In this document: positions 47,839 to 54,427 of the stretch, one piece after another
How positions within the stretch are numbered: the first letter of the stretch is position 1
How the letters are laid out: each line of letters opens with the position of its first letter
Assembly (NCBI GenBank): GCA_963724325.1
Contig: CAVRUH010000005.1
Span: 96,001 to 160,000, forward strand
From: Waddliaceae bacterium
GTDB taxonomy: Bacteria > Chlamydiota > Chlamydiia > Chlamydiales > Waddliaceae
Length of the DNA stretch: 64,000 nucleotides
Direction: 5' to 3'
The notes under the pieces: generated by a model
Seen by the model: the letters and a program-made list of their open reading frames with translations, nothing else
Databases searched by the model: none
What the model was told of the DNA's origin: nothing
Position numbers and translations under genes: made by a program

Positions 47839-47882
47839 GATCGTTTGATATTTCAAATGAATAACTTAAATGTGGGGAATTG

Positions 47883-49251
47883 ATGTTACAAGCACTACAA
47901 AGAATCAACCAAATTCCAGAGCTTCGCTCTAAAATTGTGTTCACTCTCCTGATGCTCATCGTATACCGTATTGGCGGTTTTATACCCGTTCCCGGAATCA
48001 ACGGCGAAGTAGCTGTCGGCTATTTCCGCCAACTGACCGGCGGTGGTCAAAACCTATTCCAAATGGTCGACATGTTCTCAGGCGGCGCGTTTTCTCAAAT
48101 GACCGTCATCGCCCTTGGCGTCGTTCCCTACATCTCAGCTTCTATCATCATGCAACTGTTTGTCGCCCTTTGGCCTTCTCTCCAACGCGAAGTTCGTGAG
48201 AACCCCGACCCAAGGCAAGCGAAAAATCAACAAGCTTACCAGACTAATGACCATCGGATTGGCCATCATCCAATCTACCCTGTTCGCAAAATACGCAATA
48301 GGCATGAACCTTTCACGTCCAGGTATAGTTTCTAGCGATTTACTACAATTTCATATGTTCGGCTCACCCATACTTTTTTACCTAATTTTTATCGCAACCA
48401 TGACTACCGGTACAGTATTCCTCATGTGGGTAGGTGAACAAATCACCGAAAGAGGCATCGGAAACGGAATGAGCATGATCATCACCGTAGGTATCTTATC
48501 TCAATTCCCATCCGCAATAGGACTCATCATCCAACAACTCAACCTCGACTCCCAAAACGCCGGCCAAATGAACTTCGCTTCCGTCCTCGTTCTTGTTGCA
48601 CTATTTGTATGCGTCACTCTTGGAACCATACTTATCATCCAAGGCCATCGACGCATACCACTCCAATATGCTCGCCGCGTTGTCGGAAGAAAAGAAGTTC
48701 AAGGCGGAAACTCCTACATCCCACTCAAAGTTAACTATGCAGGCGTCATACCCGTGATCTTCGCTTCATCTCTCCTGATGTTCCCAGCTACACTGGCAAC
48801 ATTCCTTGGAGGAACCTGGCTATCTACACTATCAGGTTTCTTAGATCCACGCTCATCCACTTACCTTTTCTTCTTCGTCATGCTCATCGTATTCTTTACC
48901 TACTTTTGGACCGCTACTCAATTCCGCCCCGACCAAATAGCTTCCGATATGAAGAAAAATGGCGCCTTCATACCTGGCATCAGACAAGGCAAACCAACAC
49001 AAGAATATCTCGAATCCACTATGAATCAAATCACCTTTATTGGAGCACTATTCTTAGCAATTATAGCCATCCTTCCCAACCTCGTTGGAAAATTTCTTAA
49101 TGTACCCTCAACCATAAGCTACTTTTTTGGCGGTACCTCACTACTTATTTTAGTCGGTGTCGTTCTCGATACAATGAAACAGATTGAATCCCACCTCCTC
49201 ATGAAGCGATATGAAGGCTTCATGAAAAAAGGAAGAATTAGAGGAAGATAA
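47883..49251 (+). CDS. secY: Preprotein translocase SecY (apparent frameshift near 48210)
   Basis: IPVPGI and [13 protein letters not shown] in one frame; [31 protein letters not shown] in another. Confidence 0.95.
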
Positions 49252-49321
49252 AGAATTGCACGAAATTAGAAAAGATGGTAAGATTTTAATATTCAATTTT
49301 GAAAACAATTAGGAGAGATCA

Positions 49322-49705
49322 ATGCCAAGAGTTATCGGTATCGATATACCCGACAACAAAAGATTAATCATCAGCCTCACGTATATCTACGGTGTTGGTC
49401 GATCCCGTTCGAAAGAAATTATTGAAAAATTGGGACTCAACCCCGACATGCGCGCCCTACACCTAACTCAAGACGACATTGCCCGAATTAATGGCATGCT
49501 CCAATCCGAATACATTGTAGAAGGCGATCTTCGTCGTCAAGTCCAAAACAACATTAAGAGAATGATTTCTATCCACTGCTATAGTGGAACGCGCCATCGC
49601 ATAGGACTTCCTGTACGAGGCCAACGCACAAGGACAAACTCCAGAACACGTAAGGGTAAGCGAAAAACTGTAGCCGGTAAGAAAGCGGCTGTTGCGAAAA
49701 AATAA
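49322..49705 (+). CDS. rpsM: 30S ribosomal protein S13
   Basis: [26 protein letters not shown]. Confidence 0.98.
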
Positions 49706-49723
49706 GATAAGGAGAATTTAACT

Positions 49724-50149
49724 TTGGCTAAACAAACAACTGCAACAAAACCTACGACAAAAAAGAGTCCTGTTAAAACTAAAAAACGTGTCCACAGAAA
49801 TGTTCCATCTGGAATCGTACATGTAAAAGCAACATTCAATAACACCATCGTTACCATCACTGACCCAGCTGGAAGCGTCATCTCCTGGGCATCAGCAGGT
49901 AAAGAGGATTCTTCAGGATCGCGAAAATCTTCCGCATTCGCTGCCACCCTAGCTGCCCAAGATGCCGCTAAAACAGCCATGTTGCTTGGGATTAAGAGAA
50001 GTTGAAGTGAATATAAATGGACCCGGCGCCGGCCGTGAATCCGCAGTACGCGGACTGCAAAGCTCAGGTCTGGTTGTAACAACCATTACCGACGATAGAC
50101 ACCAGTACCACACAACGGGTGCCGTCCACGTAAACGAAGAAGAGTGTAA
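49724..50149 (+). CDS. rpsK: 30S ribosomal protein S11 (apparent indels)
   Basis: [36 protein letters not shown] read in shifting frames. Confidence 0.93.
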
Positions 50150-50211
50150 ATTTTTCATGTAGGATGTTGGTATGTCCCAACACCTACAATAACAATTTAG
50201 GAGTGTTTTAC

Positions 50212-51326
50212 ATGTCAGTTAAATATGGCAAATTTGAAATGCCGCAAAAAATCTCAGTAGACGAAAAAACCGCATCCAATACCTTCGCACAATTCGTTGC
50301 CGAACCATTTGAAAGAGGATTCGGTCACACCATCGGAAATTCCATGCGTCGGTATGCTGCTATCTTCCTTGAGGCACCTGCCATCATTGCTGTTCGTATC
50401 GAAGGGTTCCCCATGAATATATGTCCATCGAAGGCGTTATCGAGGATATGACGAACATCATCCTTAATTTAAAAGGAGCACTCCTACGTAAATTACCTAC
50501 CGACGAAGCACCAAACGCCCGTGGATACCGCATCCTTACTACCATTCTCGAAATCACTCAAGAAGATCTCGATAAAGGTAAAGGTCAATATGAAGTCACT
50601 CTTGGTGATATCGTTGAAAGAGGAAATTTTGAAGTCGTAAACCCTGAACTCAAAGTATTCACTGTCACCAAACCAATGAAAAAGCAAATCGACCTCCGAG
50701 TTGCTTTTGGTCGCGGTTATGTCCCTTCCGAACGCCACATTGTTTTTGATAAGACTTCAGATGAAATCCTCATCGATGCAGCTTTCTCACCTGTACGCCT
50801 CGTCAATTACCACGTAGAAAATACGCGTGTGGGACAAGATACTGATTTCGATAGATTAATCATTGAAGTCACTACTGACGGCAGAGTTACCCCAATCGAA
50901 GCCCTAAGTTTCGCCTCGCAAATCATCAATAAACATTTCGAAGTGTTTAATACACTGAATGCTCAATCACTCAGTTTTGATGAAGAAGAGGGCGTTTCAA
51001 GTTCCGATCAAGATGAAATCATGGAGAAACTCGCTCTTCGTATTGACGAAATTGAACTTTCCGTCCGTTCAACAAACTGCCTAAGCGGTGCAAATATCGA
51101 AACAATTGCAGAACTCGTTTCAATCCCAGAACGTCGTATGCTTGAATTTAGAAACTTCGGTAAGAAGTCACTCAATGAAATTAAAGCAAAACTAACCGAA
51201 ATGGGCCTCGGACTTGGCATGGACCTAACAAGATATGGAATCACTGCTGATAATGCGAAAGAAAAAGTCAGAAAATTCCAAGAAGAACAAGCAAAAAAGA
51301 AAAATAATTTTGAAGAAGCAGGATAA
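50212..51326 (+). CDS. rpoA: RNA polymerase alpha subunit (apparent indels near 50350-50420)
   Basis: EPFERGFGHTIGNSMRR; FSPV; ELSVRSTNCL; NFGKKSLNEI. Confidence 0.95.
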
Positions 51327-52846: not shown

Positions 52847-53578
52847 GTGGATTTTACTCGAGAACCAATTATAGAAAGCATTATATCTCCGAAAGAAGGT
52901 TATAAGCTTGTTATTAGAAGCAGCAAAGGTGCAGGACACGAAGAATTTTTTGTGGACGTTGTCGAAGTTGTATCTTTTGGACACACATTTTTTCTTCGAT
53001 CGCTTGAAAGGGCAAAAGCTTTCTTAGTTCCTGCTTCGGACTATGAAATATTAGAAGTCCGTGAAACACGCATGGTATTGAAGAATGTCGGAATGGACAG
53101 CAACATCAAGATTGGTGGAGGAAAGGAACAGCCATCTAAAAAAGAGGAAAAACCACAACAACCTAAAGAAGCTGCTGAAGCCGAAGACAAGTTGGAGAAG
53201 CGAAGGGATAGAAGAAGGCAGTCACGTCGAAGACGCAATCGTGAAGATGTTGAACAGAAGGATCAGCCGCTAGAAGAGGTACTTGCGGTTCCTCAAGACG
53301 CTGTAACTGAAGAAGGCAATCCCACTCCGCCTCGTGGAACGGGATTTGCAACATTGTTGCCGCCTCCTTCAACACTGATTTCGGAGACTATTGCGCGGTA
53401 TAAGGGAGATCAGTCATTTAAGGATGTTTTTTTTCCTAAGGAAGAGGCAGTACTTGAATCAGAGTTTGTGCCTCCTTTTGAGCCTGAGGATGAAGAGCTC
53501 TCTGACGATCCATTTAATATAAAGGATGAGGAGCCGGAGGATGTTTCTGCTCCATCGATGGAGCCAGACGAACAATAA
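52847..53578 (+). CDS. grgA: Chlamydial transcription factor GrgA (CT504-like)
   Basis: N-terminus FTREPIIESIISPKEGYKL...FLVPASDYEILEVRET resembles recalled GrgA; basic middle, acidic tail; downstream of gap as in Chlamydia. Confidence 0.8.
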   Translation: MDFTREPIIESIISPKEGYKLVIRSSKGAGHEEFFVDVVEVVSFGHTFFLRSLERAKAFLVPASDYEILEVRETRMVLKNVGMDSNIKIGGGKEQPSKKEEKPQQPKEAAEAEDKLEKRRDRRRQSRRRRNREDVEQKDQPLEEVLAVPQDAVTEEGNPTPPRGTGFATLLPPPSTLISETIARYKGDQSFKDVFFPKEEAVLESEFVPPFEPEDEELSDDPFNIKDEEPEDVSAPSMEPDEQ

Positions 53579-53609
53579 ATATGTGGAGCCAGTTATTGGT
53601 TCCCCACCT

Positions 53610-53692
53610 GCTCGGGTGGTGAAATGGTAGACACTAAGGACTTAAAATCCTTTGTCCTAACGGACGTGCCGGTTCGAGTCCGGCCCCGAGCA
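53610..53692 (+). tRNA. tRNA-Leu (anticodon TAA)
   Basis: Acceptor gctcggg/cccgagc, D-loop TGGTAGAC, anticodon arm aagga-CTTAAAA-tcctt, long variable arm, GGTTCGAGTCC; CCA not encoded. Confidence 0.96.
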
Positions 53693-53772
53693 ATACAAAA
53701 CCACATACGACTCCCTCGTATGTCTCCCTAACAGATGCATATCAAGATTATACAAGCACGTGAATTTGGAGT

Positions 53773-53819
53773 GACCCAATTCATTGGGTCTTATTCCGAG
53801 CCCTATTTATTGGGCTCGG
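53773..53819. repeat. Pair of small REP-like hairpins
   Basis: gacccaattcattgggtc and ccgagccctatttattgggctcgg. Confidence 0.5.
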
Positions 53820-54121
53820 TGAGCGGTGATATTCTCCCTTTCCCTACACAAGACGTGTGAGTGCGATGGTCACCCCTTTAGCCTGGTCATTTCAGCTTCC
53901 CGACCAATGAATTTGGAAAGACTCATTTTTATTGCTCCATTTTTAATCTTATCATAAACTTTTAGCTTTATAAAATCAATCAGCAAAATGCCATTTGTCG
54001 ATTTGTTGATCGTTTTTGAATTGATCAAATTCAATCAACAAAAGGTTATTTGTCGATTTACTGATGATTTTTTGTCATAAAATTTGAGGGCACCAGTCCA
54101 TCAACAGTTTGCAAAAGACTT

Positions 54122-54202
54122 GGCCTTCGCTTCGCTACGGCCGGCGGCGATTTTGGGCGCTTTGCGCCCAAAATCGCCGCCGGCCGTAGCGAAGCGAAGG
54201 CC
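54122..54202. repeat. Perfect GC-rich palindrome (39-bp arms, 3-nt loop)
   Basis: ggccttcgcttcgctacggccggcggcgattttgggcgc-ttt-exact reverse complement. Confidence 0.95.
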
Positions 54203-54252
54203 TTTCTTTTAAGTTTTGAAATACCAGGCTTGACCTCTAAAGAAAAAAAGAC

Positions 54253-54286
54253 TTGCAATTAATGTTGTAATGTTGTAATATTACAA
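54253..54286 (+). promoter_or_regulatory. sigma66-type promoter overlapped by a TrpR-operator-like palindrome
   Basis: -35 TTGCAA (54253-58), N17, -10 TAATAT (54276-81); TTGTAAT-N8-ATTACAA at 54265-54286; trpR 2.4 kb downstream. Confidence 0.75.
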
Positions 54287-54308
54287 TATATTTTAAGGAA
54301 GACAGATT

Positions 54309-54365
54309 ATGAAACATTTTATGATACACCAATTTCGTTGGCGTTTTTGGGCAACAGCCCGATAA
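54309..54365 (+). CDS. Putative Trp leader peptide MKHFMIHQFRWRFWATAR (TrpL-like)
   Basis: AAGGA RBS, 18 codons with two TGG, lying between the operator and the first gene. Confidence 0.7.
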   Translation: MKHFMIHQFRWRFWATAR

Positions 54366-54427
54366 TACACCCTATTTTACAAGTTTATATTTTATTATTT
54401 TTAATTATTTTATAAAAGGAGATTTCC

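Follow-up and report, generated by a model that had tools for sequence, protein, structure and literature searches.

The control region of a predicted protease–peptidase–trpR operon in a Waddliaceae bacterium (contig CAVRUH010000005.1) is a real, conserved tryptophan (Trp) leader of a non-classical type, situated beneath a predicted TrpR operator, and its mechanism is one that we infer. All coordinates below refer to the window, i.e., the whole stretch of 64,000 nt that was analysed, unless another locus is named. Sequence comparison establishes the conservation of the predicted operator, the putative leader, the distance from the last Trp codon to the stop, and the hairpin. The Trp-sensing role assigned to the leader is strongly supported by this conservation, by the TrpR-type operator upstream, and by the Trp-related genes that lie downstream of its relatives. 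The ORF very probably belongs to a family of Trp-sensing leaders.

Predicted Operon and Orthologous Loci

Gene X (54428–55360, plus strand), the first gene of the operon, encodes 310 aa and is read as a predicted C58-type (AvrPphB/YopT-like) papain-fold cysteine protease with a Cys-His-Asp triad, on the basis of a structure model and an alignment. Among 21 aligned sequences, C83 and H233 are invariant and D248 is present in at least 90%. The model has a pLDDT of 88, and its top Foldseek match is AvrPphB (1ukf, E = 1.1e-5); Pfam and NCBIfam profiles gave no match to gene X. The protein is devoid of the alpha/beta-hydrolase domain that many homologs carry. Its protease domain is followed by a short C-terminal tail that resembles the end of the homologs of ~500 aa, the intervening alpha/beta-hydrolase being gone. 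The second gene (55361–56524, plus strand) encodes an M20 family (ArgE/DapE-like) metallopeptidase/deacylase of 387 aa with a hydrophobic N-terminus (PF01546, 1.2e-26), for which every NCBIfam match falls under its own cut-off. The third is trpR, the tryptophan repressor gene (56658–56951, plus strand; PF01371; TIGR01321, 97 bits with a cut-off of 67), which is the sole copy found in the genome. Gene X, the M20 peptidase gene, and trpR all lie on the same strand and are predicted to form an operon.

Matches to gene X occur in 45 of the 400 genomes of the order, its own genome counted, and close homologs (55–60% identity) in just two other genomes, both outside the window's family. Both of these genomes keep the operator and the leader, the latter ending in …FWATAQ-stop and …IWARAL-stop. 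The order of elements is operator, leader MRIYDTSFTTLSLSWQFWATAQ, gene X, M20, second operator, and trpR in G385, and operator, trpR, leader MIFFIKTSTFKSSSIIWARAL, gene X, and M20 in G130; in both, the ORF after gene X was recognized by eye as similar to the M20 peptidase. All three leaders, that of the window included, finish in W-A-x-A-x-stop. A related-locus search seeded with gene X returned nothing. Distant homologs of gene X are also linked to TrpR: an operator lies directly upstream in G168, and trpR lies between two paralogs in G067.

Predicted Promoter and Operator

The palindrome TTGTAAT-N8-ATTACAA (54265–54286) is a predicted TrpR operator, as judged by motif comparison, and is the only site in the genome that fits this palindrome with zero or one mismatch. 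Of 116 chlamydial trpR loci, 81 carry a matching motif no more than 150 nt upstream of trpR (background, 0.001 per 160 nt), and the window operator is one mismatch away from the 20-nt consensus of those 81 sites. The genome has a second near-consensus operator, outside the window (G000:C5:180644–180663), which is located just upstream of a minus-strand ORF, a 255-codon open frame without assigned function. No near-consensus operator was found at the two TyrP genes of the genome, and a search for trpA gave no match in this genome, which is 85% complete.

The operator would overlap a predicted sigma66-type promoter (54253–54281, plus strand), read by eye as TTGCAA (54253–54258), a spacing of 17 nt, and TAATAT (54276–54281). 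This promoter has 8 of 12 consensus matches and falls under the scanner's threshold; the scanner offers an alternative at 54265–54292. In one ortholog (L022/L051), TTGACA and a -10-like hexamer lie on the operator in the same register as in the window. In a genome of the same genus (G001), an operator heads another operon (L012:764–6513), whose genes were named by eye as serine-hydrolase-like, unknown, racemase-like, and ABC transporter; trpR is convergent at this locus, and there is no space for a leader.

Leader ORF and Hairpin

The leader has an RBS, AAGGA (54295–54299, plus strand), followed by an ORF of 18 aa, MKHFMIHQFRWRFWATAR (54309–54365, plus strand), with its ATG at 54309 and a TAA stop at 54363–54365; orthologous leaders are L022/L051 and L023/L052. 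Its Trp codons are at 54339–54341 and 54348–54350, the last one five codons ahead of the stop. Indeed, the stop is found at the same distance from the last Trp in 27 of 38 family members. A 4-bp GC hairpin, GGGC-AACA-GCCC (54349–54360, plus strand), identified by folding and by family conservation, opens on the last Trp codon, starting at its GG, and has a closing-pair probability of 1.00 in the predicted free RNA. The 52 nt 3' of the leader stop contain 1 G and 5 C; a G-poor, U/A-rich spacer (54366–54415, plus strand) leads to the RBS region of the first regulated gene, AAGGAGATT (54416–54424, plus strand). The RBS, ATG, stop, hairpin, and AT-rich tract reported in a preliminary description of this DNA are thus all in place. 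At 18 aa the leader, which that description noted as missing from its ORF track, falls under the 20-aa floor of the ORF lister used here.

That description regarded the ORF as a leader with clustered Trp codons, a claim that is strongly supported: the leader is conserved in the two orthologous loci and in the wider family. The genome has 301 intergenic SD-led ORFs of 12–35 aa; just 3 contain at least two Trp, and among these three the leader alone adjoins one of the two near-consensus operators. The leader copy of TGGGC-N4-GCCC is also the sole case in the genome with an in-frame stop no more than eight codons on.

A stem of at least 4 pairs opens on the last Trp codon in 28 of the 38 members; among the first 30 members the count is 21, versus 16.7% expected. 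The hairpin is retained despite an early ORF stop (e.g., L015, L203, L302, and L350), and its inner pairs swap between subtypes (GGGC/GCCC, GGCG/CGCC, and GGCC/GGCC). The case for the hairpin is made by invariance, retention past early stops, and these swapped pairs; tests of covariation were negative. RNAalifold found no consensus structure in the mixed 30-member alignment, and within subtypes the A3 pairs are 100% paired yet nearly invariant, and the 73.8% pairing of A4 was matched by 271 of 500 shuffles.

No terminator-like site was found at 54295–54427, and no mutually exclusive antiterminator in the folds of the locus. The 8 nt 3' of the window hairpin contain 2 U, and at least 6 U are found there in just 4 of the 38 members. 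The earlier remark that no strong terminator/antiterminator pair is visible is borne out at the hairpin family-wide. A few members (e.g., L180 and L188) have a stronger hairpin with a U-run further downstream. A classical trpL transcription attenuator was considered and rejected: the leader of such a system is present, and the intrinsic terminator and the antiterminator both fail. Within 53560–54600 of the window and in 20 member loci, tRNA was the only Rfam family above the gathering threshold.

A Leader Family in Chlamydiales

TrpR was detected above cut-off in 115 of the 400 genomes of the order. In 40 of 116 loci, trpR is followed on the same strand by a gap of 45–600 nt. A Trp-terminal ORF, i.e., one that ends within six codons of a Trp, is contained in 29 of the 40 co-directional gaps. 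In 25 of those 29, GC or CG comes directly after the Trp codon, compared with 5852 of 69137 TGG sites in the window genome. Among control gaps of the window genome, some of which were created by assembly frameshifts, 38 of 279 passed a loose rule akin to this one and 1 of 279 passed a strict rule. A sequence-only model was built on 30 hand-picked leaders and run on 310 genomes. One run yielded 24 matches for inspection, of which 7 were accepted; two further runs yielded 37 matches, comprising 1 training member and 36 inspected, of which L350, L359, and L368 were accepted. With these 10 new members and L247, the family amounts to 41 curated loci; L018 and L182 were judged doubtful and removed ahead of all counts.

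Six of the new members precede a TrpX-like binding protein (PF04392, with NF041285 under cut-off), DAHP synthase (NF006421), and genes named by eye as trpB2, two TyrP-like permeases, and a TrpRS-like gene; the remaining four members sit before unknown genes. Across the family, some leaders lie ahead of Trp transporters, trpB/trpD, DAHP synthase, or TrpRS, and some leaders occur in genomes without a detected trpR. The design common to the 41 loci is a pyrimidine-rich leader, W or WW, a 4-bp GC hairpin, and a G-poor tract, with WW present in 25 of the 38 members that were analysed jointly. The residues 3' of the last Trp vary (WATAR, WRSHA, WPTGH, WLAGH, WA-stop, and WR-stop). This variability, together with the survival of the hairpin past early stops, suggests that the constraint acts at the RNA level. 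The Arg codon after Trp is always CGN (23 of 23), a count that was set aside as evidence because the members were partly chosen by that pattern. Pattern scans of genome contigs (at least 120 matches) and metagenome contigs (15 matches) gave no further recognisable chlamydial leader among the matches listed, and these matches were treated as chance.

The additional sensing of Phe, which the preliminary description had considered, is not borne out. In the 12-codon stretch ahead of the last Trp (456 residues in 38 members), enrichment is seen for Phe (77), Ser (83), and Leu (66) alike, and the two orthologous leaders do not retain the Phe positions. Since Ser and Leu are enriched too, the Phe enrichment is attributed to selection for pyrimidine-rich RNA as a by-product, and Phe sensing is rejected.

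Several loci show further features. The trpR frame itself ends in the leader motif in L211 (1446–1530, minus strand), L247, and L281 (1340–1424, minus strand), the endings listed for the three being …QRWWR-stop, …FRWRR-stop, and …RWWR-stop. The trpR tail of L211 is followed by a 5-bp hairpin and also has a 13-bp anti-RBS match (see below); L211 and L247 precede TrpX-like binding proteins, and the L281 frame is a weak trpR, possibly damaged. In such fusions the TrpR tail may serve as the Trp sensor. An FAD-dependent monooxygenase-like family is encoded after the trpR-leader at 10 loci (L014, L196, L202, L207, L215, L222, L230, L231, L238, and L244); these proteins are 39–90% identical and match PF01494 (two tested), with all named families under cut-off. 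Unannotated proteins with the motif D-x-A-C-Q-I-R, which have no Pfam match, follow the leaders at L212:3973–5190 and L303:435–1388.

Proposed Translational Attenuation and Alternative Mechanisms

The reading that we favour, at slightly below even chances, is translational attenuation, in which a Trp-stalled ribosome would cover an anti-RBS stretch and thereby free the downstream RBS. As the motif suggests, TrpR-Trp would repress the overlapping promoter. When Trp is ample, ribosomes would clear the leader, the GC hairpin would refold over the G-rich last Trp codon, and the pyrimidine stretch ahead of the Trp codons would pair with the downstream RBS; Rho may then shorten the untranslated mRNA. 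When Trp is scarce, both the stretch and the hairpin would lie under the stalled ribosome, and expression of gene X, the peptidase gene, and trpR would follow.

The candidate anti-RBS stretch, AATTTCGTT (54331–54339, plus strand; register -17 to -9 from the last Trp), has the same register and the same target (AAGGAGATT) as that of the ortholog L052. It is weak here, however: the duplex of the window has an energy of -5.2 kcal/mol (shuffle p 0.45), as compared with -11.0 in L052 and -9.4 in L051. The anti-RBS helix is absent from the predicted fold of the window locus, and the accessibility of the RBS is unchanged by a stalled ribosome (predicted 0.44 vs. 0.40–0.44). Owing to this weak pairing, the switch may be leaky at the window locus. 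For the free RNA of both orthologs, an anti-RBS helix of about 9–11 bp is predicted, which is mostly or wholly lost with a ribosome on the Trp codon; in the stalled state of L051, the post-stop tract is predicted to take over the pairing of the RBS.

Across the family, the segment from -30 to -1 relative to the last Trp pairs more stably with its cognate RBS (-8.7 kcal/mol) than with the RBSs of other members (-7.3 kcal/mol; n = 28, p 7e-4), a significance that, like all family p-values, is overstated because the members are kin rather than independent. No cognate RBS preference was observed for the segments -51 to -31 and -72 to -52 (p 0.59 and 0.53, respectively) or for the post-stop tract (p 0.37). 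The signal drops to p 0.045–0.08 without L211, L293, and L300, and a decoy within coding sequence reached p 0.08–0.09 in the same test. It is limited to 15 short-spacer members (p < 5e-5 by a post hoc split), the 13 long-spacer members giving p 0.69. Ten of the 38 members, with a downstream start that is uncertain, absent, or out of range, were omitted from the RBS test, and L350, L359, and L368, with anti-RBS duplexes of -8.4, -2.9, and -3.5, are too few for an out-of-sample version. By the RBS-opening energy computed over the whole leader, the Trp-stalled state comes out ahead of the at-stop state for just 13 of 34 members, and behind it for 9.

Rho-dependent transcription attenuation, the chief alternative, is conceivable, if less likely than not. 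According to this alternative, a cleared leader would expose ~120 nt of G-poor, pyrimidine-rich RNA to Rho, the hairpin would act as a polymerase pause, and a Trp-stalled ribosome with the queue behind it would block Rho. The base composition of the family is consistent with this: C exceeds G on both flanks of the hairpin (342:126 upstream and 284:149 downstream, n = 30), and the G fraction is 0.02 at +15 to +29 and 0.06 at +30 to +44 from the last Trp. A rho gene is present in the genome, although it is frameshifted in the assembly, and Rho would account for the long-spacer members that have no anti-RBS signal. For C. trachomatis, PMC6504234 describes diffuse 3' ends within the trpR-trpB gap (means of 511,810, 511,889, and 511,986) and finds robust full-length RNA only under Trp depletion. 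Two of these published means bracket the last Trp codon of C. trachomatis TrpL (~511,903, computed from coordinates). PMC7755916 attributes Trp-limited polarity to chlamydial Rho. Yet YtgR roadblocking also explains the C. trachomatis 3' ends, and the window locus is C-poor, with 6 YC dimers in 135 nt versus 18–20 in the orthologs. Moreover, Rho leaves the position-specific cognate RBS pairing unaccounted for. For the short-spacer members, the family data lean towards translational attenuation, and the translational and Rho models can act in series.

It is improbable that the window leader is a decaying remnant of a former switch, with TrpR alone now in control. A weak anti-RBS stretch, few C residues, the lack of a predicted switch, and the loss from gene X of a domain that its homologs have would all suit a remnant; yet the RBS, the start, both Trp codons, the hairpin, and the Trp-to-stop spacing are intact as in the orthologs, while the remaining peptide has diverged. 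There is even less reason to regard the hairpin as a weak, factor-assisted intrinsic terminator on which a Trp-stalled ribosome would simply sit, which we consider a slight possibility. The hairpin is conserved across members, and U-runs occur a few nt further on in several of them (e.g., L215, L222, and L244), but the stem has just 4 bp, U-rich tails are as rare as noted above (2 of 8 nt in the window; at least 6 in 4 of 38 members), and the tails of L198 and L207 are C/A-rich. Finally, a TnaC-like arrest peptide whose sequence senses free Trp is very hard to credit: the W-A-x-A-x-stop ending of the three orthologous leaders and the fixed Trp-to-stop spacing point that way, but the post-Trp residues vary freely family-wide with no conserved arrest motif, and induction by Trp would run against both repression by TrpR and the nature of the targets, which serve biosynthesis and transport.

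Comparison with Known Systems

As in the trp region of E. coli, TrpR is combined here with an operator over the promoter and, immediately downstream, a short leader containing Trp codons. Unlike that region, the leader region here has no terminator/antiterminator and no Rfam match above threshold, its hairpin opens on a Trp codon, and its targets are a protease and a peptidase. In translational attenuators of the ermC/cat type, a leader-stalled ribosome unmasks the downstream RBS. The same is proposed for the leader here, except that the signal would be uncharged tRNA-Trp instead of a drug and that the masking stretch would lie inside the leader ORF. Leaders of E. coli tnaC and Mycobacterium cys genes likewise have pyrimidine tracts and no intrinsic terminator, and Rho is proposed or shown to act on them; for the cys leaders of Mycobacterium/Actinobacteria, the lack of a terminator is described in PMC1262725. 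In contrast to tnaC, which is induced by Trp and depends on the peptide sequence, the leader family found here has an unconserved peptide, and its logic would be starvation-on.

Putative TrpL peptides of C. trachomatis (59 aa, in the trpR-trpB gap) and C. felis (…WWAFAQ) are printed in PMC3937554, according to which no attenuator structure had been reported for the C. felis group. The C. trachomatis TrpL is termed atypical, possibly degenerate, in PMC7755916, and both PMC7755916 and PMC6504234 treat it as an open question if this TrpL works. The peptide encoded at L180 is identical to the 59-aa TrpL of C. trachomatis, and this locus retains a GGC/GCC stem of 3 bp; L184, whose peptide is almost that of C. 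felis, has the same GGGC-N4-GCCC and spacing. Both putative TrpL peptides, neither of which is validated, fall inside the chlamydial leader family found here. The papers cited here give no architecture shared throughout the order, and keyword searches of open literature listings yielded no account of a chlamydial leader family spanning the order or of a protease–peptidase–trpR operon.

Interferon acts against chlamydiae chiefly by starving them of Trp. We tentatively propose, as an idea that is more doubtful than not, that Chlamydiota share an ancestral Trp switch without a terminator, in which a Trp codon opens a mini-hairpin and the preceding codons mask the next RBS. Such a switch would be a portable module, placed after an operator, after trpR, or in the C-terminal tail of TrpR, and the C. 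trachomatis TrpL would be its descendant; here its targets would be a cysteine protease resembling secreted effectors and a peptidase, which would release tryptophan from the proteins of the host. The 41 natural variants single out the last Trp codon, the mini-hairpin, the five-codon spacing, and the upstream pyrimidine stretch as the conserved elements, and with them the question of the C. trachomatis TrpL becomes testable. Leaders and operators also flag unstudied starvation genes, namely the C58 protease-M20 operon and the FAD monooxygenase family at 10 loci.

Genome Setting

The genome appears to be that of an environmental chlamydia: one homolog of gene X comes from a Chlamydiales bacterium, and a genome of the same order encodes the published C. 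trachomatis TrpL. Its housekeeping genes show probable indel errors. The secY-, rpsK-, and rpoA-like genes (named by eye; 47880–51326) and rho (G000:C5 ~229,000–230,600) look frameshift-split, which suggests indel errors in the assembly. Upstream of the operon are a tRNA (53610–53692; anticodon TAA, Leu, by eye) and a 46-nt direct repeat, 80% identical (53972–54072); insertion next to this tRNA may be how the operon arrived here. An inverted repeat of 39 bp (54122–54202), perfect apart from its loop of 3 nt, is GC-rich and single-copy and lies ~50 nt upstream of the predicted promoter. On the other side of the operon, transposase-like ORFs (58247–61251) are located between two identical ORFs of 87 aa (57745–58008 and 61320–61583).
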